This document shows positions 2,079 to 17,624 of a stretch of 20,000 nucleotides of DNA, one piece after another (positions within the stretch are counted from its first letter, which is position 1; every line of letters begins with the position of its first letter). The translations under genes were made by a program, and so were the position numbers. The notes under the pieces were generated by a model. It saw only the letters and a program-made list of their open reading frames with translations. It searched no databases and was not told where the DNA came from. Location of the stretch: NCBI GenBank assembly GCA_000182565.2, contig KQ257458.1; one strand, written 5' to 3'. The DNA is from Spizellomyces punctatus DAOM BR117. Its lineage: Eukaryota.

Positions 2079-2678
2079 TGTAATGGATTTTTTATAGGTA
2101 GACTATGGTAAAGACAACTTGGGTCTCCTAGCAGGTTGTGTGGGTGTCCGTACTAGGAATCATAGTCTCCGAATCCTTTCTTTGGGCGTTGGTAGCGACT
2201 TAAGGGTGAGAGGCAAGGAGAGTCAGTTAGTTGTGAACCGAGCAGGATTTAGAGGCTTCTGTGTGGGTGATCAGGCTGTTGAAGCACTCTGTTAGGTTCC
2301 TGTTAACCTAAGATTGGAGTTGAGAAGCTAGTTGTGGGGATTTAGTGTTGCTACGGCTTCTGCCCACGACTTATTTTATTGAATACATCCTTTTTATACA
2401 AGATTCTTGGATAAACTGTTAAACTAAACTAAACTAATGGGTGCCGCTGCATCGCAACTGATTTATTGGTGGCAGTACCGATCTCTTCCTTTTCCACACT
2501 GGCTCGGGCCTCCACAGGTTGTACGAGGCATGCTGAAATCTAATGTGCCAATTGCCATTCTCCGAACCAGTTTTTTCAGTTGCGGTAACCCAATCGGTGG
2601 AGTTGGTCACGCGATTCGTGCTTCCCGCGTCCGATTTGGGCTTACTCATGATCTCTCGAAGACATCCTCATCATTACA
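2079..2678 (-). repeat. 3' LTR of element 1 (600 bp)
   Basis: Ends TGTAATG...CATTACA form a perfect 7-bp inverted repeat and abut the PPT. Segment 2079-2403 matches 10348-10672 with about 24 differences in 325 bp by manual count. TATA-like TATAAAAA on the minus strand at 2391-2398. Confidence 0.88.
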
Positions 2679-3201: not shown

Positions 3202-6200
3202 CTATTCCAACCACTGCTTCACCACCATCGGTGGCCTTGCTGTAGGGGTCCGCAATGTGGTTTGTGAGGGGCTGGCCCACCGCGTAAGGTTTCGGAGCGT
3301 CAACTCCCAGCCAAAACTCATGCCCTGGAGTCTGCAGCGGCGCGTTGGGGTTGGTCCGAAGCTGATGAACCCAGGGTGAACCCAGGTAGCGATCGCAACC
3401 CCAAGGCGATCCAGCACGCCCTCGGCCTCGAAGTCACCTGAGTCTTCCTCCCAAGGGTAGCCAGACATGTACATGGAGGGTATGCTCACTCCTGCTTGTC
3501 CTCTGAGATCAGTGTTCATTGTGTTAGAAATGAAAGTTTTAGTTTCAGTGTCAATAGAAGGGGTTTGCGAAGCAGAGTGAGTGTGTAAGGGAAGTAGGTC
3601 ATGGGCGGTTGAAGAGGAACAAAGAGGGGGAGCATGCAGGGGCGTCCTTTTAAGGTCGTCACCGGCTGATTTTGACAGCTCAGATGCACATAAGCGTGAT
3701 CGGGAGGCTTGGTGTGGCATTCTCGACTGGTGAGGTAAGCCACACAAAACTGGTTTTCTTTCTGGTGAGAGGGCGTGATTATCACGTGAGCTATTGTCCG
3801 GATAAACCGCGAAGCATTGGTGGTCGGAAGCATAAGCCGTATCTTCCGGGGTGTCGCCTGCAAGGCTGACTACCAAAGAGTCCTCTACTAGCGCGCTAGT
3901 GGGAGCTCTGGATCTCCAGTACTCTTCTAAGGCTTCAGAAGCCTCTGTTAGGGCTTCCTCTGGTTCCCAGGTATCCTCATGGGGTGGGTATCCAGACCAA
4001 CATATTTGAAATTGACGTTTTCCATGCCTGGTTCAATGGTCTACTATCACTTCCACTTCAAACTCGCCCTCTGAAGCGTCGGAATCCTCCGCTTGTGCTT
4101 CTGCAACCTTTTCCTCAGTTTTGGCGTTGACAGGCTTCTGGTACAGATGTAATTTTGATATGTGAAACCATGGATGAAGTCGTCTCATCTTGTCTGGCAG
4201 TTTTAACTCATAGTTGTCATGGAGAGGGTTACAGTCGGTCACCGTGACTGGTCCCAGCCATTTTGGGGCAATCTTGGACTCATACCCTGCTAGGTTTTTT
4301 GTGCTCAGAAGCACCTTATCTCCTCTCCGGAACTCCAAATGTTGTCGTGATAAATCATAATATCTTTTCTGCAAATCCTGGGCTTCGATCATCAGATCTC
4401 GGATAAGGATGTTTAGGTTGCCGAGGTGTTTACAGAGCTCTTCTGCATCTGCATTTCTGGTTTCTGATGGCCTTTCGACGATATCCACCAGTGGATTGTG
4501 GGGCTCATAGCCTAGGTCCATTCTGAATCATGTCATTTTTGTCACCTTGTGTACTGTATCGTTGATAATGAATTCTGCAACCGGAAGAAAGGTGTCCCAG
4601 TCATCTAATCATGTGTTGACCATTGTGGTAAGGACCTGCAAGACCATTGCTTTGTCTCTCTCTGATTGTCCATCACCTTGAGGGTGGTAGGCTGTGGTGA
4701 GCTCTTGATTAATCTTTAGGTTTTTGCAGACCTCCTGCCAAAATCAACTCGTAAACTTGGGGTCATGGTCCAAGATAATAGTCTCCGGAATGCTGTGCAA
4801 TGGGATGTAGCATTCTATAAAGAGTTCCGCGACCTGAATAGCTGTCGCAGTGCTCTTGAGGGGCCATACGTGGATCCTCTTTGAGCATTTACATGCTATT
4901 AGCCAAAAGGCATCGTACCCTCTGGAAGTAAGTGGGAGCTTGGTTACGAAGTCAGTCGTGATGACTGTCCAGCGTCCCGGAGCTGGTGGTATGGGTTTCA
5001 GCAACCCCGGAATCAGTTGCGGTACCCTTTTTGAGCGTTGACAGATTTCACATCCTGTGCAGTGTTTTCTGAAATCTTGTGCCATCTTTGGCCACCAGAC
5101 TTGCGCTGCAGCTCTGGCATAGGTTCTTTCGAATCCGAAGTGTCCTCCCCCCTCGTGAAAAAGCTTGCACACCTTGGGGGTGCAAGCAGGGGGCACGTAG
5201 AGGTGCCAAAGGTCTTCGGAGACTGAAAAATGGTGCCACAGCAGGTTATCTGCACGTTGCCAGTCCTGAAGAAAGCGCGCGTTGGCTGTAGTGTAGGTGT
5301 CAGGGCTGGTCTCCCATAGGAGCGTGCGGGCCTGTTGGGCTATGGGGTGGAGCTGGCTGGTGAGGCCAGTGCGGATGGCAGCAATGAGTGCAGGCTGTAA
5401 TGCCAGACGAAAGACGGCATCTGCCAGTGTTGAGGAAGGTGCAAGAGCCACTGGTGTGGTGCGCAGCCGTTGTCTTCCGCATTCCGCCACCCATATTTGG
5501 GTCGCGGTGGAGCAGAGGAGGGTTTCCGCTCCTAGTAGCCGTGAAAGTGTATCAGTGACAATGTGAAAACATCCTGGTTTGTGAACGATTGTCATCCATT
5601 CAGACCAGTAACTAAGATTGAGGGCCCAGCAGAGAAGCTTATGGTTCTCACCTTTGTATTTAGCGAGCCACAAAAGAGCTCGGTGATTGGTAATGACCAT
5701 GAAAGGCAGGCCTTCGAGGTATGGGCGGAGTTTTCCGACGCCCCAAATGAGGCATCCGGCCTCGAGTTCGATGGGGGGGGCCTTTTTTTCTGAGGTGGTG
5801 GTGCCTCAGGAATGGTAGCACAGCAGGCATTTAGAAGCATCCGGCTGTAACTGTTCGAGCATGACATTAAACGCTGTGTAGGAAGCGTCACTGTGAAGGG
5901 TGTAGGGGAACCCTTTTCTGGGTGCGGCAAGCACTGGAGCTGTTGTCAGAGCCTGCTTGGCGGCTGCGAAGGCAGAGTTTCGGGAATCGGTCCATGAAAC
6001 TTCACACGCAATAAATCTGCGCAGACCTTGGTCGGGGCGCTTGCGAGCAAGGCGTCCGACACAAAAGGGGTCAATGGGCAAGTCCACCAGCGATGATTGG
6101 CATAGATTGACTGCCGGTTGGTCTGAGGAGCTAGATTTTGGATGTTGCGAAACCTCAAATCGGGCTCCGGTGGCTGTGATTGTAGGGGCCACCACCGTGT

Positions 6201-9200
6201 CGAGCATGGATGGTGAATTGAGCTTTTCAGTGCCTTTCTTTGGGTCAGCGCGACCCTTTTTAAGGTCTTGGTATTCGCGAACGCCCTCTTGGATAGCATC
6301 TTGCAGGGGTCGGACGAGTTCCACGTAGCGAGGGATGAATTGGGCATAGAACCCTAGGAGACCCACAAAGGACCATAGGTCACCTATGAATTTGGGTCAT
6401 GGCCAATTGACTATGGTTGCAACCTTGTCTGGATCGGTAGCGAGACCCTGGGAGGAGGCAACGAAACTGAGAGCCGTGAGCTGGTGAAAGAGCCATTGAC
6501 ACTTGTCGAGTCTTAGGGTGAGTTTGGCTCTGGAACAGCGGTCGAGCCAGTCCGCGATGGCGTCTAGGGCTTCCGCGGCTGTCTCCGCTCGTGTATGGAT
6601 ATCGTCAACGAAGTTGTTGATATTTTGCCATTTGGAGGGACCCAAGGTGTCGTCCATTACCCGACAGAAGTGCGAAGGGGCAGTCTTGGGTCTGAAGGGC
6701 ATAAAGAGTGGTTCATAGATGCCGTCATGGAGTCTGATCGTGAGCCATTTGCGTACCAATGCATCAGTGATGGCGATTTGGTAGAATCCTTTGTTTGTGT
6801 CACCTCCCAATATGTATCGGAATGGGACTGCGATGATCCAGTTCAGGATGTCGAGCATGATGGGAAAGGGATATGGGTCCCAGGCCATGCAGTCATTGGC
6901 TCGGCGATAGTCGAAGGCTACCTGCGGGGGTTTGTCTGCATAGCGAATGATAACAGGATTGCTGGTGAAGGTTACTTCGGTGGTTCGTTTCCACCTCTGA
7001 AGCCCCATCATGGTGTCTCACTCCGTCTCGAGGGCTGTCCGCTCCAATGGAGAGTACAACCATGGCCTCGAAAGGGGTGGCAGAGCTGAGATAAATTGAG
7101 GTGCATAAGGAATCTTGGTGTAGTTCCCTATGAGATGACCCTCATAGCTGAAGGCTTGATGGAAGTGTCGTAGAATGTTGATTAGGGCCCAGACCACGGG
7201 TTTGGGTTGCTTGAGATCGACGTGGAAATGTTCCGCGTCTTTTAATTGGGCTTCAAAGGCCCCTGGAGCCTTCTCCGTAGAGTCGAGGTTCCATTTGTTC
7301 CAAAGTGTCTGCCATTCTTCTTTGGAAATGTTCTCTTTGGGGTCCGCAACCGAATTATGGGTTGCAGTGGACAGTTTGAGGCCTAACGGGGCCATTGAGC
7401 TAGCTGCGGTGGCCTCAAGAGGGTTTTCGATGAGAAAAGTTTGGGCTGCCACATGCATCTGTCCCGTGATTAACATGGTTAATTTAGACTTCTGAGCTTT
7501 GGCTTTGGTCAGCCGTGGCATTGACACATCCTTCATGAATTCGCCCTGCTTGGTCTTGTATGGCGTGCCGCGCATGTGATTGGTGTCCAGCTCATCCGTT
7601 ATGGAGCAAGGGATAAGGATGTCCAGATTCTTGAGCGTCACCGCAAAACTGGGTAACGGGGGTTCCTGAACCAAGGTTTGGAGTTTCAAATGTCCCAGAA
7701 TGTCATTGGCTAGGATGATGAGAGGTTTCCCGTATGCAATGACTCGGAAATAGGTGTGGAAAGTCAGGTATTCTCCTCCGTGGCCTTTGAGGGAAGTTTC
7801 GAGGCATACTGTCTTGGTAGATGAGATACGTCCACCAATGCCATTGAAAGCCATCGTTTCCGCATCCTGCAAATCGGTTTCGGAGAACAGAAGGCCCTGG
7901 TATGTGTCGGAAACCAGAGACTTGCAGGCTCCTGTGTCTAGTACCACAGGTGCCCAGAGCTGAGTGATGACGGCTAGCATCCAGCAAGGCTGCGTTTGGG
8001 TCTTGGTCTGGCTTTTGAGTACATCGCCTAAATCTACCGAGTAGAAGGCGTTGATGGAAGGCACCGCGACCTCGAAATGGGGCGCGATGTCGTTACTTGT
8101 TGCTTCCGTAGCCTTGATCGCACTCTCAAAGTGCTCTCTAGATTTGTCATTTTGTGGTTTTGTTGTTTTATTCTGGCGAGCAACTTGTTCGATAGCCAGC
8201 ATGACTATACACGTCCGTTCGCTCTCTTTGTGTCTTTGGAGACGTGGATGGTCTTTAACGTGCAGAAATTTGGGGTTTCCGCGACAATAATAATAGTCTG
8301 AGCAAACGATATTGCCTGTCAGGAGAAATGCCACCAGTTGCAGGTTGGCGTAAGAATCAAAGATAACAGGATCTTCAGAGCTCCACATCAAGAATTTCTC
8401 GCGCTCATCGAGCCTTATCCAGGCAAGGAGGATCAAACGAGGGGTACCATCTTCTCGGACTTTTCGCAGGATTCGATCCTTGTCAGCTTCAGCTGAGGCA
8501 GCAATGTAGAGGTGGTGGGAACTCCACGTGACTGTGTAGGGGTCGTTCCCGAGGTGCCCAGCGCCTCGCTTTGGTTCTTTGGCGAAGAAGCTGAGCATGC
8601 GGGGGTTGTCGCCCATCATCAGAGCCACTTGTGGGGTGCCCCAGATGATGGCTATGTTGTCCCAGACTCGGTCCCAGCCCTGCGTGGGCATGTGGGGGTC
8701 CTCTTCCTTGGTCACTGTGACCTTGGAAAGAGGTGCGGTCATCAAAATTGTTGATTCCGAGTGCTCGGGTGAATGAAATAATCCGATGGTGTGGAATCCT
8801 TGATTAGCGGCAGCTGTCCTTTCCAGTTCTGAAGCCGAAAAAAGAGTCTCGGTGGTAGCAGACGTTGAGTCCAGCTCCACTATGTATGACTTCTTGGACT
8901 CCTGTTTGGGTTTCCAACCTGCGGGCATGGGTGCTCCGTATGGTCCCTTCTTTCCATCTTCAGGATCTTTTCGGTTCGGGTTCTGCCAGCAGAAAACATT
9001 CCAATGCTTTTTCTGACAGAATTTGCAGGGTGCCGGTGGTTCCTTGTTGGGGTCCGGAACCATCTTCTGAGGGCCGTTGCGACCCTTTTCGGGGTTTCCG
9101 GTTTTATGTTGAGCCGTCTGCTTAGAGCCTTTGTTGGTTCCGGTCTTTTGTGACTTCTTCTGAGCTTCTGCAGCACCGCTGTAGCAAGGGTCTCGCTTTC

Positions 9201-10220
9201 TGGTGTCATCAGAGCCAAAATAAAGGCGCAGGAAGTCTTTTAATTTGGTCAGGTTCGTGACGTTACAGGATTTGACCATGATTTGGATGTCGCTGGGCAA
9301 TTGTTCGACTATTAGGTCGAAATGCTGGTCAGCGGGACATTCTATGTTTGCCCGGTCGCCATAAGCGAGGCGCCGGAGATGAGTTTTGTGGTCGATGAAC
9401 GCGAGAAAGCTGCGAAATTCTTTGGGGTTCTCATGGCAGCACACATATTCAGTTTTGCGCTTGGACTTGGTTAGGGGATCTCGGAACTCTCAAAGCAGTT
9501 CTTCTTTCCACCTTTTCCAGGTCCATGAGCGAGTTTCCTGGGCTTCCAGAGTGTAAAACCACATGTCAGCAGGGGTTTTCTTGGCTGTCATGGCTGGTAG
9601 GAGCTGTACCATCCTGGCATCTGAAGTCACGCTAACGTTTTGAAGAAGTTGGACTTTGTTAAGCCATTCTTCAATGTCTTGGTTTCTTTTGCCCGTAAAC
9701 TCGGGTACGTCCTTTGCTTTCAAGAAGTTGACCTTGGTGTTGCTGGCACTTGGATTGGAGGCACCGGACCTGGAAAACTTGGTTCGGTACGCTCCCTTGG
9801 TGTGTCCGACGTTTCCCACGGGGTTGCGGACCGTTCTCTTGTAGCTCGTGCTATGAGAGGTTGTTCAGGCAGTGGGTGATGTGCTAGGGCTTCTAAGGCT
9901 CGTGCGAGGCACTCATCCGCCACTGTCTGACATTCGGAAAGCCTATGAAGCTGTTCCATAAGATTTTGAGTTGCCAACTGCATTGCAGCAGTCGAGTGGG
10001 CAATGTCTTCTTTTAAAGCTGCCACTTCAGAGGCCATTGTGGCCAAGTTAGGGGCTTCCGGTTCAATGGAAGTGGTCCCCAAACACCTCGGGCATGTTGC
10101 GGGAGGGACTTCAATGTCCTCCGCAGGACCCTGACTATGAGTCTGGATCACAGGTGAGCGGCCTCGCATTGGTGAGCATTCGACCAGCATCATTCTCAGT
10201 TTCGTGAAGTCTGTTTCCAA
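3202..10220 (-). pseudogene. gag-pol: gag-pol polyprotein pseudogene of element 1 (Gag, Zn knuckle, MTase-like domain, protease, RT, RNase H, integrase, chromodomain, C-terminal extension)
   Basis: ORFs 9490-9819, 7018-9444, 6397-7011, 5806-6366, 4744-5700, 4033-4521 and 3202-3876 share one frame and are separated by TGA stops; 9720-10220 is in another frame. Motifs: VPEFTG...IEEWL (capsid), CKFCQKKHWNVFC, VLDTGA, FDYRRAN, DTNKGFYQI, FVDDI, HSDAS, ELEAGCLIW, HEGGGH...CEIC, ITTDFV, LDHDPKF, GQSER, KWLGP, FEVEVIVDH*...WSGYPPHEDTWEPE. Confidence 0.9.
8311..8676 (-). other. DIRS1-type/phage Dam-like N6-adenine methyltransferase-like domain, catalytically degenerate, inside the element 1 polyprotein
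   Basis: WDNIAIIWGTPQVALMMGDNPRMLSFFAKEPKRGAGHLGNDPYTVTWSSHHLYIAASAEADKDRILRKVREDGTPRLILLAW...EDPVIF...NLQLVAFLLTG follows the order and spacing of the DIRS1 MT pattern (IxxxWGxPxVDLFA..N..F..P..G.DAF...W...Y.xPP...L.K+....+IL+.P.W...P...L.L.AW.+SG). Recognised by eye. Confidence 0.6.
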
Positions 10221-10334
10221 AACAAGAGAAAAGGTTTCTGAGTAGCTACCTGAGCAGATCTCGGTTTGCGCAAGAGTTTCGGTATGACTGAATAAGGTTT
10301 TCAGCTGAATTTGAGAGGGGAAGGTGGTTCATCA

Positions 10335-10347
10335 TGCTTCTCCACCA
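10335..10347 (-). other. Primer-binding site of element 1 (TGGTGGAGAAGCA), tRNA-Ala-like
   Basis: Starts with TGG immediately after the LTR-terminal ...GTTACA on the minus strand. TGGTGGAG is complementary to the CUCCACCA 3' end typical of many tRNA-Ala. Confidence 0.7.
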
Positions 10348-10919
10348 TGTAACGGATTTTTTGTTGGTAGACTGTGGTAAAGACAACTTGGGTCTCCTAG
10401 CAGGTTATGTGGGTGTCCATACTAGGAATCGTAGTCTCCGAATCCTTTCTTTGGGCATTGGTAGCAACTTGAGGGCAAGAGGCAAGGAGAGTCGGTTAGT
10501 TGTGAACCGAGCAGGATTTAGAGGCTTCAGTGTGGGTGATCAGGCCATTGAAGCACTCTGTTAGGTTCCTGTTAACCTAAGACTGGAGTTGAGAAGCTAG
10601 TTGTGGGGATTTAGTGTCGCTACAGCTTCTGCCCGCAACTTATTTTTATTGAATTCATCTTTTTATACAAGAATATGCTACGGTAACATCTACACTAGTT
10701 TCTGTAACCTTCATTAGGGTGGCGGTGTCCGATATTCCCATTTCCGATCATTGCCATGATCAATTATGATTGCGCAATGTATCCTTTGTGCTGTGCTGGT
10801 GTAGCCCAGAACCAAGCTTGATCTCAGGGGTTTTGAAGCTTAGGTTGCAATTGCAGAAACCTCAATCATGGTCACCTGATGCCTTTAAGCGAACCGGTTC
10901 ATCAGAGTTGTTCACTACA
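10348..10919 (-). repeat. 5' LTR of element 1 (572 bp) with a divergent U3 part
   Basis: Plus strand runs TGTAAC...CACTACA. The first 325 bp are near-identical to 2079-2403. The remainder has only patchy similarity (GGTGGCGGTGTCCGATATTCCCATTTCC versus GGTGGCAGTACCGATCTCTTCCTTTTCC; TCACTACA versus TCATTACA). Confidence 0.75.
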
Positions 10920-12444: not shown

Positions 12445-13356
12445 ATGACCAGCCAGGAAGAGATTCTCTTCAACACCATTGCTGAGCTTGACATAGACCA
12501 GGTCAGGCAGGAGCTTTATCAAGCAAAGCTCCAGCAGCTGAACTCCACCACACCAGCCACTGCTCAGTACCAACCCAGAGTAGATAAATCCCTGGTAAAA
12601 GTCCTCCAAAGCAAGTTGAAGCCCTACAAAGGCAACAGGAATGTCCAAGAGATTAGGACATACCTCCTCAGACTTGAAGAGTACTTCCAGGCAGCTGCAG
12701 ATCTATCACCAGAAGGCCAACTGTTAGTAGCCACCACCTACTTGGAACTCCATGCTGAAGTCTGGTGGCAAAGCCATGTCAAGAACCACCCAGTAGGATC
12801 CCCTCTCAGAATCCAGTCTTGGGACCAGTTCAAGAGAGCCCTTCAAGAGAACTTCCTCCCAGCAAATGCCACCAGAGCAGCAAGAGACCAGTTGGCCAGG
12901 CTCAAACAACAAGGCTCAGTAAAGGAGTACCTAAACCAGTTCAATACTTTATGCCTTCAGGTGGATGACTTGTCAGAAGCTGAAAAGTTAGACAAGTTTA
13001 TCAGAGGGCTTAAACCCAGGGTTCAGGAACAACTGGAGCTCAACCCCACCAGTACCATCAACTTAGCCACAGCTGCAGCAACACCTGATAGGATTGACCA
13101 GATCCAGTTCAGCTACCAGAAAAGAAGCCAGGCCACCAGCTACTACTCCCCCAAGGCTGAGAACTCTGGAGTAGTCCCTATGGAGATAGATAGTATATCC
13201 ACCAACTCTGGGAAGCCTCTCTCCAAACTCACTGAGGCTGAGAAGACTGAGCTCAGAAAGAAGGGAGCCTGTTTCAGGTGCAGAAAACCAGGCCATATTG
13301 CCCCCCTATGCCCCTTGAAGACCAAGCAGCAGGGAAATGGCAAGCAGACTCAGTAG
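12445..13356 (+). CDS. gag: Gag of element 2 (303 aa)
   Basis: Intact ORF with CACCATG start context, Ty3 capsid-like [10 protein letters not shown]...SWDQFKRAL...[10 protein letters not shown]...FIRGLKP, PMEID motif and CCHC knuckle [14 protein letters not shown]. Confidence 0.95.
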
Positions 13357-16300
13357 AAGATTCTGCCTCTACTGGGGAAGATATCAAGAACCACCACCCT
13401 GACACCCACCACCTGGTACACTCTCCTGTTATTCAACCCTTGGACCTATTGGACCCACCTGAAACCACCCCTGAGACTTTAACTATCCATGGACTTTACC
13501 TGGAACCCCAGAGAACCCCAGCATCCCAGAGAACCCCAGAAACCCAGAGAATCCCAGAATCCCAGAGAACCCCAGAAACCCAGAGAATCCCAGAACCCCA
13601 GAGAACCCCAGAATCCCAGAGATCCCCAGAAACCCAGAGAATCCCAGAACCCCAGAGAACCCCAGAATCCCAGAGAACCCCAGAAACCCAGAGAATCCCA
13701 GGACCCCAGAGAACCCCAGAACCCCAGAGAACCCCAGAAACCCAGAGAACCCCAGAACTCCAGAGAACCCAAGAACTCCAGAGAACCCAAGAACCCCAGA
13801 GAACCCAAGAATCCCAGAGAACCCCAGAAACCCAGAGAATCCCAGAACCCCAGAGAACCCCAGAATCCCAGAGAACCCCAGAACTCCAGAGAACCCAAGA
13901 ACTCCAGAGAACCCAAGAACCCCAGAGAACCCCAGAACCCCAGAGAACCCAAGAACCCCAGAGAACCCCAGAACCCCAGAGAACCCTAGAACCCCAGAAA
14001 ACCCAGGAACCCCAGAGAACCCCAGAACCCCAGAGAACCCAAGAACCCCAGAGAACCCCAGAACCCCAGACCACCCAGGCCACCTACCAAGAAAGCAAGA
14101 TCCATGTAGTAGTGGTGGCTCCATACTCTTTAAGTACCCCCAAAGGGCCAAGGATTCCCCAGAGTCACTTGCTGACTGTGCAAGGTAGAATCCAAGGAAT
14201 CCCAGTAACCATTCTCCTGGATAATGGGGCAAACCAACTCTATGTGTCACAGTCCTTTGTCAAGAAGGCACAACTGGTGACTCATTCTCTCCCTGGAGCA
14301 GAAATCTCTATGGCTGATGACAGAAAGCACCAAGAAATAGGCTTTGTCAAAGGTCTTCAGTACTCAGTAGGAACCTACACAGAACAGTCAGACTTTATAG
14401 TAGCCCCAATCAAGTTTGACTTGATCCTGGGTATACCTTGGTTTGCCTGGAGGAATCCCAGTATCAACTACAACAAGAACACTGTGACCTTCACCACCTC
14501 CCAGCACCCCAGAGTCAGATGGATTGTTAAGCAGGCCAGCTCTTCCAACAAATCCCAGAAGTCCAATCTTATCACCATGGTATCAGCAAAGATGTTGGCC
14601 AGAACACTGAAGAAGAGGACAGCAACAGCTTTTGCTGTGTATCTCAAGAACCCTCAAGATACCAGCACCCCTCCAGACACCATGGATTCCAAAGTCACCA
14701 AGCTTCTTGAAAACTATCAAGATGTCTTTGCTGAAGAGCTTCCCCCAGGACTTCCCCCTGAGAGATCAGTAGATCACAGAATTGAACTCAGTGACCCCAA
14801 CCAGACCCCCTGGAGACCAACCTACCACCTCTCTTCTTTGGAGTTAGAAGAACTGAGGAAGCAGCTTTCAGAGCTTCTGGAGGCAGGCCACATCAGACCC
14901 TCCAAGAGCCCATTTGGAGCACCTATCCTCTTTGTTAAGAAGAAAGAAGGTTCTTTGAGGATGTGTGTGGACTACAGGGCTCTGAATAAAATCACCATCA
15001 AGAACAGATATCCCCTCCCTAGGATTGATGAGCTGATGGATAGGCTGAATAGAGCCCAGGTGTTTACCAAGCTAGATCTGAAGTCAGGCTATTACCAGAT
15101 CAGAGTCCACCCAGAAGACATCCCCAAGACAGCCTTCAGAACCAGATATGGTCACTTTGAGTTCCTGGTCATGTCCTTTGGAATGACCAATGCCCCAGCC
15201 ACTTTCATGACTTTGATGAATGATGTCCTTAGACCCTTCTTGGACATCTTTGTTATTGTCTACCTAGATGACATCCTCATCTACTCCAAGACCCCAGAAG
15301 ATCACCTGGACCACCTCAAGCAGGTTCTGCAAGCCCTCAGGCAGAACAAGCTGTATGCCAACCCCAGCAAGTGCCAGTTCTTCAAGCAAGAAGTAGAGTT
15401 TCTTGGCCATGTAGTCTCACATGAAGGAGTCAAGCTTGATCCCAAGAAAGTGCAGACTGTTCAAGAATGGCCCACCCCTCAGAGTGTCACTGAAGTCAGA
15501 CAGTTCATGGGCCTGGTGAACTACTTCGATAGCTTTCTGAAGGACCTGGCAGAGCAAGCTGCACCATTGACAGACCTGTTGAGAAATGACAAGCCCTGGA
15601 CCTGGTCTGAACCTCAGGAGAAAGCTTTTCAGCAGCTGAAGGATATGGTCACCAAAGCCCCTGTACTCAGACCCTTTGACCCAGCCTTGCCTACCACTGT
15701 CTTCCCTGATGCCTCAGGCTATGCAGTTGGAGCATGGCTTGGACAGGATGATGGGAAAGGCATGAGACCAGTTGCCTACCACTCCAGGAAGATGGCTCCA
15801 GCAGAGACCAGATATGACACCAGAGAACAAGAGCTGTTAGCCATCCATGATGCCCTCAGAGTTTGGAGGCCCTACCTGGAAGGAACCCCCTTCAAAGTTA
15901 TCTCAGACCACCAGTCCCTCAAGTGGCTACAGAACCAGCCCTTCTTGACCAGAAGACAAGCCAGATGGGTCATGAATTTCCAATCTTTTGACTTTAAGAT
16001 TGGCTATGGCCCAGGAAGACTCCACACAGTGGCAGACATCCTGTCTAGAAGACCAGACCTGGCCCCAAGATGCATCAAGTGCAAGGCCTTGGTGACAGCA
16101 GAGTTGAATGCTGTGACCCACACCACCAGCACCCTTCAAGAGAGATTAAAGACCAGTACCACAGAAGACCCAGAACTTCAAGAGCTCATCCAAGCTTTGG
16201 ATGACCCCAGGAGACCAGAAGACCAGCAACAAAGGCTCAAATACCTCAGCCATCAAGATGGGTTACTCTATTTCCAGGACAGGATCTTTGTTCCTAGTGA

Positions 16301-17624
16301 CCCAGACCTAAGGTTGAGCCTACTCCAAGAAACCCATGACACTCAGTATGCTGGACACTTTGGCATCACCAAGACCCATGAGGCCCTAGCAAGGCATTAC
16401 TACTGGCCCAGGATGTACAAGGACATTAAGAAGTATGTCAAGTCTTGTGATTCCTGCCAGAGAAGCAAACCTAGTCAGCAACCACCAGCAGGCTTGCTGC
16501 AGCCCCTCCCAGTACCTAAGACCAGATGGAGCCAGATCTCCATTGACCTGATCCCTGACCTACCCATGACTTCCTCTGATCACAATGCCATCTTTGTCAT
16601 TGTTGACAGATTGTCAAAGAGAGGCCACTTCATCCCCACTACCACCAGAGCCTCAGCCAAGGACCTGGCCCTGCTCTTCCTGAAGCATATCTTCAAGCAC
16701 CATGGCCTCCCAGAAGTGATTGTATCAGACAGAGACACCAAGTTCACCAGTTCGTTCTGGTCCAACTTGATGCAACTCTTAGGCTGCAACACCCTCCTAG
16801 CCACTGCAAGGCACCAGCAGACCAATGGACAGGCAGAGAGAACCATCAAGACTTTGAAGATCTACCTGAGGGCTTTCCTGCAGTACAACATGAAGAATTG
16901 GGAAGATCTTCTCCCCTTTGCTGAGTTTGCCTACAACAACAGTATCTCAGAAACCACAGGCTTTACCCCATTCTACTTGGAGAATGGCCAGCATCCCAGG
17001 ACCCCAGCAACACCACCAGGAGAAAGCAATGATCCTGAAGCAACAGACTTCCACCAGTATATTCAGCAACTGCTTCAAGTAGCCAAGGATAACATGATAC
17101 TGGCCCAAGAAAGACAAGTTCAGCAAGCCAACAAGTCTCTCAGCAAGGCCCCAACCTACCCCCTAGGCTCCAAAGTTTGGCTATCTAGAGAAGGTATCAC
17201 CCCAGAAGAAGAAGCCCAGAGGCCAGCCCAGAAACTTCTTCACCCCTGGCTTGGACCTTACAGAATCAAGGCCAAGGATGAATTTCAGAATTACACCCTG
17301 GAGCTCCCCAGCACCATGAAGATTCATCCAGTGCTCCATGTGAGACTCCTCAAGCCTTACTTGGACCCCACAGAGGACTTCCCTACCAGACCAGTACCCC
17401 CTGAGCCTGAGCCAATTATCCAGCAAGGAGAAGAGTTTTGGGAAGTTGAGAAGATTCTTGACCACAAGACCAGAAGGAAGAAGAATCTCTACCTCATCAA
17501 GTGGAAAGGCTATCCCTCCTCTCAGAACACCTGGGAACCAGAAGAAAACCTCCTACCCCATTGCTGCAAGTGGTCACAGAACGGCGAAGAACGGAAGCTC
17601 TTGCTACATGTTCTCCCTACATAG
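13278..17624 (+). CDS. pol: Pol of element 2 (protease, RT, RNase H, integrase, chromodomain), probably entered by -1 frameshift near 13332; last 20 or so codons probably read into foreign DNA
   Basis: Uninterrupted 1448-codon frame with [63 protein letters not shown]...CDSC, ISIDLI, VSDRD, GQAER, WLGPY and WEVEKILDH...IKWKGY...TWEPEENL. Confidence 0.95.
13332..13376 (+). promoter_or_regulatory. Candidate -1 programmed ribosomal frameshift signal: slippery G_GGA_AAT plus downstream pseudoknot or hairpin
   Basis: The heptamer (13332-13338) is phased X_XXY_YYZ in the gag frame and pol is in the -1 frame. After a 5-nt spacer come GCAGA(13344-48)/TCTGC(13362-66) and CAGTAGA(13351-57)/TCTACTG(13368-74). 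Confidence 0.7.
13503..14078 (+). repeat. Coding minisatellite of 32 x 18 bp (consensus GAACCCCAGAGAACCCCA) encoding E-[PSTL]-Q-R-[TI]-[PQ]
   Basis: 32 hexapeptide units counted in the pol translation; frame is preserved throughout. Confidence 0.95.

Follow-up and report, generated by a model that had tools for sequence, protein, structure and literature searches.

DIRS-type tyrosine-recombinase retrotransposons are described as carrying a gene in which reverse transcriptase (RT) and RNase H are followed by a methyltransferase (MT) domain (PMC3783388). According to a recent preprint, Ty3/Gypsy elements, chromoviruses among them, have acquired DIRS-derived DAM domains on at least four occasions (Fernandez-Moreno et al., bioRxiv 10.64898/2026.05.21.726589, May 2026). 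The text of that preprint places the resulting retrotransposons with long terminal repeats (LTRs), the DAM-LTRs, in green algae (Chlorophyta), an ochrophyte, ichthyosporeans, Pyropia and Euglena, preferentially in hosts with AMT1 and N6-methyladenine (6mA), and states that the captured domains keep the motif N-P-P. Here we analyze a 20,000-nucleotide stretch of contig KQ257458.1 (assembly GCA_000182565.2) of the fungus Spizellomyces punctatus DAOM BR117, hereafter the window, which contains a Ty3/Gypsy chromovirus on its minus strand. Between the nucleocapsid (NC) zinc knuckle of Gag and the protease (PR) region, the polyprotein of this element has an additional block, which is probably a captured DIRS-type, Dam-derived domain that has remained conserved, has lost its catalytic motif and is retained as a non-catalytic Gag-Pol module.

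The block shares the reading frame of Gag and the protease motif and contains no stop codon, lying within a frame of 823 aa. Its landmarks are IWGTPQVALMMG at positions 8611-8646, LYIAASA at 8491-8511 and VAFLLTGN at 8311-8334. A first-pass annotation, made from the letters of the window alone, had pointed to this in-frame, stop-free block between the knuckle and the DTG protease motif and had likened it to a DIRS1/Dam-like adenine methyltransferase; every coordinate and string of that description was reproduced.

The window block matches no Pfam family at E-values up to 10 and has no sequence match in PDB, and neither the block nor its relatives match Pfam Dam or any PHROG at E up to 10. A phmmer pass over 1.84 billion representatives (E <= 1e-3) returned five proteins, of which P0002, P0003 and P0004 are true relatives; P0005 and P0006, both very long bacterial proteins and the latter a surface protein with bacterial Ig-like repeats, were taken as chance matches. 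When a collection of 5.8 billion was searched with profiles, P0007 and P0008 came to light, and nothing outside the block family appeared even at E-values as high as 10; a profile scan of metagenome contigs with the block-family alignment found no relative, and a search of a protein atlas with P0003 yielded no usable match. Two of the relatives come from S. punctatus (P0002 and P0008, 89-91% identical to the window), two from Geranomyces michiganensis (P0004 and P0007) and one from G. variabilis (P0003), so that the block lineage is known so far only from these three species of Spizellomycetales. A variable linker and then the same D(T/A/V)GA protease region come after the block in P0003, P0004, P0007 and P0008, and P0002 starts inside the C-terminal end of the block and runs on into the same protease region. 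The occurrence of the block in other copies of the family, whose absence the first-pass annotation had named as refuting its claim, was thus confirmed by four further proteins with the same arrangement upstream of the protease. Alignment of five family members (the window, P0003, P0004, P0007 and P0008) revealed 37 invariant columns.

The origin of the block was examined by comparison with methyltransferase-like domains of metagenomic retroelements. From the Geranomyces proteins the pattern W-G-x-P-x-[IVM]-D-[LF]-F-A was derived, and its back-translated form was searched for in metagenome contigs, giving at least 120 stretches. Of the 120, 45 satisfied criteria of completeness (12 aa or more ahead of the motif and 120 aa or more behind it, absence of X, presence of DLFA[STN], and x-P-P 45-80 aa downstream). 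Removal of redundancy at 70% identity or more left 38 sequences, and the exclusion of the frameshifted L201 left 37, which are the C-terminal parts of long open reading frames (ORFs). Among eight full ORFs bearing these domains, Pfam detected RVT_1 in all eight, RNase H in four, and Dam in one, the last with an E-value of 0.0035 that is below the cut-off. Weak matches to the tyrosine-recombinase family were observed in four of five ORFs that overlap or follow them. Because of the RVT_1, RNase H and tyrosine-recombinase matches, the metagenome set is, as judged by its sequences, one of DIRS-like RT-RNase H-MT genes. The loci L150-L269 represent a large class of such ORFs with F/Y-P-P in place of N-P-P (37/37 of those used). 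Two other loci, L193 and L202, share the start WG.P.xDLFA and have N-P-P or H-P-P followed by a different downstream sequence, and may belong to another class of MT-bearing retroelements.

Comparison of the block family with the 37 DIRS-like domains by hhalign resulted in a highly significant match (Prob 98.8%, E 5.1e-17). With everything through the fetching motif cut from both sides, the match was retained over 98 columns (Prob 96.6%, E 6.6e-10, score 56.5); none of 200 column shuffles reached this score (mean 11.6, standard deviation 2.3, maximum 20.9), and the reversed query scored 13.0. Even the window sequence alone, likewise deprived of the motif, gave Prob 88.2% and E 3e-6. The alignment is colinear over 98-121 columns and reaches the end of the domain. 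A hidden Markov model (HMM) of the DIRS-like domains scored 43.4 bits with P0003, 38.8 with P0004, 36.3 with P0007, 16.5 with the window ORF (residues 274-356) and 8.7 with P0008, and gave no match to the polyprotein of the second Gypsy element in the window. In particular, the block shares with the DIRS-type domain an N-terminal helix containing WG.P, the D..s.W segment, a helix with RvL.Kv and two strands, ILvaP and the terminal L.aw.LsG. These profile comparisons thus give good support to homology between the block and the DIRS-type MT-like domain, and the claim of a DIRS1/Dam-like domain within a Gypsy polyprotein holds.

The two domains differ in several respects. The DIRS-type MT follows RNase H and neighbours a tyrosine recombinase, whereas the block is found in the NC-PR interval of a chromovirus with a DDE integrase, upstream of RT. 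The x-P-P motif has been lost in all members of the block family, DLFA has been lost in the S. punctatus branch, and the block has an additional conserved C-terminal extension. This extension (8239-8301, DY..RG.PK....HPR) is conserved between the genera, with the D, Y, G, P, H and P columns invariant in S. punctatus vs Geranomyces, and nothing in the DIRS-like domains corresponds to it; it may represent a family-specific extension or a processing site.

An AlphaFold2 model of the block, built from the five-sequence alignment, is poor (predicted local distance difference test, pLDDT, 54.2; predicted template modelling score, pTM, 0.55). Its order of elements, helix-strand-helix-strand-helix-strand-helix-strand-strand, agrees with the alignment, and in the model the motif I position maps to strand one and the motif IV position comes after strand two. 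Against PDB and BFVD, Foldseek gave this model no match at E <= 1e-3; the weak fold matches include TFB2M and the Mtf1 complex. Structure prediction, one of the checks that the first-pass annotation had called for, thus agrees in element order and falls short in model quality and database matches; the model is consistent with the MT reading without being independent proof of it.

The (D/N/S)PP(Y/F/W) tetrapeptide is the established catalytic motif of amino-methyltransferases. At the corresponding motif IV position, the window has A-S-A within LYIAASA (8491-8511), P0008 has residues of the TAA type, and the three Geranomyces proteins have H-V/I-A/H, so that P-P is absent in 5/5 family members. 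The same dipeptide is invariant in 37/37 DIRS-like domains (32 F-P-P and 5 Y-P-P), and N-P-P (N113, P114, P115) is invariant in 16/16 phage Dam sequences. At the motif I position, IDLFAD is present in the Geranomyces members, and VALMMG is found both in the window (8611-8628) and in P0008; the preceding WGTP is kept in the window. The first-pass annotation had read these differences as replacement of DLFA by ALMM and loss of the catalytic x-P-P, and the alignment indeed places ALMM at DLFA and A-S-A at x-P-P. Since ALMM is common to the second S. punctatus copy, it reflects a change on that branch rather than decay of a single copy, in agreement with the earlier statement that the motif changes are not explained by CpG decay. 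Given the catalytic role of (D/N/S)PP(Y/F/W) and the loss of P-P, the domain is predicted to be unable to methylate adenine by the canonical mechanism. The notion of a pseudo-enzyme is likewise supported, as the catalytic motif was lost in 5/5 members while the block stayed conserved.

The element that carries the block lies on the minus strand between direct repeats at 2079-2400 and 10348-10669. These LTRs are 93% identical (over 299 nt scored; ends refined by alignment). Because RVT_1, RNase H, Integrase_H2C2, a Tf2-1-type SH3 domain and a chromodomain are found within it, the element is a Ty3/Gypsy chromovirus, and it has the LTRs and the order of knuckle, PR, RT, RNase H, integrase and chromodomain that define this group. 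It is encoded by a single minus-strand reading frame from approximately 9864 to 3202, which ends with TAG and has no frameshift; the longest open piece of this frame is 7018-9489 (823 aa). The features of the element, in the direction of its translation, are as follows.

10348..10669, minus strand: 5' LTR of the chromovirus, with TG...CA ends; direct repeat with 2079-2377
10330..10347, minus strand: putative primer-binding site adjoining the 5' LTR, reading TGGTGGAGAAGC... on the element strand; proposed from its TGG start and position
9028..9864, minus strand: N-terminal part of Gag, from the translation, assigned by position only; the frame is broken by an in-frame TGA at 9490-9492
8989..9027, minus strand: zinc knuckle of the Gag nucleocapsid, CKFCQKKHWNVFC, by motif match
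8680..8988, minus strand: linker of about 100 aa from the knuckle to the MT-like domain, from the translation
8302..8676, minus strand: predicted DIRS-type, Dam-derived methyltransferase-like domain, catalytically degenerate, by hhalign vs the 37 DIRS-like domains
8239..8301, minus strand: family-conserved C-terminal extension of the MT-like domain (..SDYYYCRGNPKF..DHPRL), by columns invariant between S. punctatus and Geranomyces
7993..8238, minus strand: poorly conserved linker from the MT-like domain to the protease, about 14% identical to P0004
7621..7992, minus strand: putative aspartic protease region, with LDTGA at 7927-7941 followed by ILANDILG, by motifs and position upstream of RT
6487..6813, minus strand: reverse transcriptase, with FVDDI at 6598-6612 (Pfam RVT_1, E 2.6e-8)
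5611..5994, minus strand: RNase H, split by a TGA at 5806-5808 (Pfam RT_RNaseH_2, E 7.4e-12; RT_RNaseH, E 1.8e-11)
5026..5196, minus strand: H2C2 zinc-binding domain of integrase (Pfam Integrase_H2C2, E 4.2e-19)
4141..4323, minus strand: Tf2-1-like SH3 domain at the integrase C-terminus (Pfam SH3_Tf2-1, E 6.6e-9)
3913..4026, minus strand: chromodomain (Pfam Chromo, E 3.2e-9)
2079..2400, minus strand: 3' LTR, direct repeat with the 5' LTR
9490-9492, 7018-7020, 6397-6399, 5806-5808, 4744-4746, 4609-4611, 4528-4530 and 4033-4035, minus strand: TGA stops

The N-terminal part of Gag (9028..9864) has no Pfam Gag match, and the integrase core (rve) was not detected in this decayed copy. P0008 covers the linker that joins the knuckle to the MT-like domain, the Geranomyces proteins beginning near the block. 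For the region 7621..7992, neither Pfam nor a PDB profile search nor hhalign with the protease of the second Gypsy element provided support, and BLASTP against that element gave no confirmation; its motifs and its place before RT suggest that it is an aspartic protease.

Eight premature in-frame stops, all of them TGA, interrupt the minus-strand element over about 6.6 kb, and the window copy of the chromovirus is dead. Recoding of TGA was considered for the eight stops and rejected, since the residues aligned with them in the second Gypsy element of the window vary (R, S, K, T, G). A sister contig from another sequencing run covers positions 7800-9100 with 64 substitutions and no gaps relative to the window. 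The window has T/A where the sister contig has C/G at 32 places and the opposite is seen at 16, and three Cys codons of the window (TGT/TGC) are CGT/CGC in the sister copy. Together with the stops, these differences resemble the decay of a methylated copy by CpG-to-TpG change (CGA-to-TGA).

The derivation of the block from Dam meets with several results that weigh against it or limit it. For the comparison with phage Dam, 16 PF05869 proteins were aligned, namely phage T1 Dam, two T1-like loci from IMG/VR and a diverse set of 13 phage records, the last being used as the T1-like IMG/VR Dam loci are all at least 61% identical and hence too similar for a profile. Pfam Dam (PF05869) detects T1 Dam with 236.5 bits as the positive control (gathering score 28.1 bits) and does not match the window block or four of its relatives at E up to 10. 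The alignment of the block family with phage Dam by hhalign is not significant (Prob 0.9%, P 0.06), its score being matched by 4 of 100 column shuffles, and neither is the direct comparison with T1 Dam alone. In addition, the N-P-P-Y and LD.AA motifs of phage Dam are not kept in the window, although a greedy alignment of the block with phage Dam is colinear in motif order. The connection to Dam is thus only transitive, by way of the DIRS-like set, which itself aligns with the 16 phage Dam sequences at Prob 96.2% and E 2.2e-9. Of the profile comparisons proposed by the first-pass annotation, that with DIRS-type domains is accordingly significant and that with Dam itself, when made directly, is not. 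A motif derived from the block family had served to collect the DIRS-like domains, a bias controlled by cutting the motif off. Finally, the nearest DIRS-like domains have themselves F/Y-P-P and not N-P-P, and eukaryotic DAMs showed no activity in E. coli, as stated in the preprint (10.64898/2026.05.21.726589), so the very function that was lost is uncertain.

The constraint on the block was assessed at two distances. BLASTP of the window ORF against P0004 aligned 351 residues with 34% identity, and by region the identity was about 36% in the block (48% in its core, residues 337-394), about 14% in the linker and about 45% in the protease region, so that by sequence comparison the block is nearly as well conserved as the adjoining protease region. 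Among the copies of S. punctatus, the variant list covered 40 of 79 variable places. Among these, the block has 18 (8 synonymous, 10 non-synonymous) and the flanks have 22 (12 synonymous, 10 non-synonymous), with non-synonymous to synonymous ratios (pN/pS) of approximately 0.37 and 0.24, respectively, values that are mixed with post-insertion decay. The first-pass annotation had proposed a dN/dS test of the block; the identity between genera, near that of the protease, speaks for constraint, and the within-species ratio, which is weak evidence, is not lower in the block than in the flanks. The same ratio would fit a neutral passenger, captured once and decaying slowly, by virtue of young elements or as a spacer between NC and PR, with no function of its own, as would loss of the catalytic motif in all members and of motif I in S. 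punctatus, and the death of the window copy. A passenger should, however, diverge like the adjacent linker, and is disfavoured because the block retains between genera more than twice the linker's identity and 37 columns invariant over five sequences, among them W, L, I and F residues that look buried; we regard this explanation as unlikely.

Retention would also follow if the domain were still an active N6-adenine (or other) methyltransferase with a non-canonical active site. Such activity would fit with IDLFAD at motif I of the Geranomyces members, with the 6mA enrichment of DAM-LTRs elsewhere (bioRxiv 10.64898/2026.05.21.726589) and with the presence of 6mA in the host (PMC12695648), but P-P, found in every one of the DIRS-like and phage Dam domains compared, is present in 0/5 family members and the S. 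punctatus copies are also devoid of the motif I aspartate. With the catalytic role of (D/N/S)PP(Y/F/W), this makes enzymatic activity very improbable. Still less credence can be given to chance or convergence, that is, to an unrelated alpha/beta domain peculiar to this chromovirus clade: the lack of Pfam, PHROG and PDB sequence matches, the non-significant direct comparison with phage Dam and the weak structure model would all fit with it, and against them stand the hhalign E-value of 5.1e-17, its motif-free counterpart of 6.6e-10 with 0/200 shuffles reaching the score, and the colinearity over 98-121 columns to the domain end. As to an artefact of this copy, whether through nesting of a DIRS fragment or through a chimeric assembly, nesting is frequent among retroelements, and the preprint warns of chimeric DAM-bearing elements in Euglena (bioRxiv 10.64898/2026.05.21.726589). 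A copy-specific nested insertion is nevertheless ruled out by the same in-frame arrangement in four further proteins from three species together with the gapless sister contig across 7800-9100 with its 64 substitutions; no DIRS RT or recombinase flanks the block, and S. punctatus is reported to have no tyrosine-recombinase elements (PMC3783388), which leaves hardly any room for such an artefact.

We therefore consider capture and non-catalytic retention the likely explanation. A domain of approximately 125-140 aa would descend from the Dam-derived MT-like domain of DIRS-type tyrosine-recombinase retrotransposons; a Ty3/Gypsy chromovirus lineage would have captured it and fixed it between the Gag nucleocapsid knuckle and the protease, and the domain would then have been kept as a non-catalytic module of Gag-Pol. 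Dead methyltransferase folds that serve in nucleic-acid binding or as partners of an active enzyme are known in METTL14, DNMT3L and Mtf1/TFB2M. The block resembles these proteins as an MTase scaffold without catalysis, the analogy being a functional one only. In betaretroviruses, a dUTPase is fused to NC upstream of PR, and this provides another, purely positional, analogy of an accessory domain of nucleic-acid metabolism in the NC-PR interval; the dUTPase has an unrelated fold and is an active enzyme. By analogy with the dead methyltransferase folds, the role that we prefer is that of a nucleic-acid-binding scaffold that would accompany NC inside the particle, bound to RNA, cDNA or the RNA:DNA hybrid. 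Granted that the domain is retained, the chance of this role may be put at somewhat below even.

S. punctatus has been described as having high levels of 6mA (PMC12695648), and the domain might instead dock or recruit the host 6mA machinery or read 6mA, a role that seems doubtful. A more speculative version of this idea is that, in a host with 6mA on its active genes, the dead Dam-like domain of Gag-Pol acts as an epigenetic decoy or adaptor, which binds ApT/6mA DNA or docks the AMT1 complex. Were this improbable proposal true, new cDNA or insertions would acquire permissive 6mA chromatin or be steered to it, and the element would have a second chromatin-reading module beside its chromodomain.

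The similarity of the captured domain in this chromovirus to those of DAM-LTRs is evident: both occur in Ty3/Gypsy elements, some of the described ones also having chromodomains, and in both a DIRS-derived DAM has been captured. The only position given for DAM-LTR domains in the preprint text is between integrase and RT, whereas here it is the NC-PR interval. DAM-LTRs were screened by hmmsearch at E < 1e-5 (10.64898/2026.05.21.726589); the strict definition, as worded in that text, combines this threshold with a conserved catalytic pocket, and the element of S. punctatus, having neither a Pfam Dam match nor N-P-P, lies outside it. If the term is taken more broadly, for any Gypsy element bearing a DAM-like domain of DIRS origin, it belongs to the DAM-LTRs. 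The main text of the preprint nowhere uses the words fungi, chytrid, Spizellomyces, gag or protease, and its supplements may list species (10.64898/2026.05.21.726589); a literature search found no other fungal or chromoviral Dam-like domain. The architecture as such, proposed as novel by the first-pass annotation, was in consequence anticipated in 2026 for Gypsy elements with a DIRS-derived DAM. What is new here is the fungal host, the NC-PR position and the loss of the catalytic motif, in a domain invisible to the Pfam-based screen of the preprint.

A second Ty3/Gypsy chromovirus is located at 13251-17624 on the plus strand of the window, with an intact pol frame of 1457 aa whose product includes PR, RT, RNase H and integrase together with SH3 and Chromo domains. 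An MT-like block is absent from it, and its LTRs were not found within the window. Upstream of its protease, a long array of 18-nt repeats (approximately 13395-14260) encodes PE(T/P/S)QRT hexapeptides and occupies the place of the MT-like domain of the first element.

The above analysis would extend the capture of DIRS-type adenine methyltransferases by LTR retrotransposons to fungi. Since the block family was missed by Pfam Dam and only one of the eight F/Y-P-P DIRS-like ORFs gave a weak match to it, censuses that rely on the Pfam Dam HMM (E < 1e-5) probably undercount the DAM modules of retrotransposons. Such domains can apparently outlast the loss of their catalytic motif, which argues for a non-enzymatic, scaffold use in the retroelement life cycle. 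As S. punctatus is transformable and its 6mA has been mapped, the role of the DIRS MT domain is open to experiment in this fungus.

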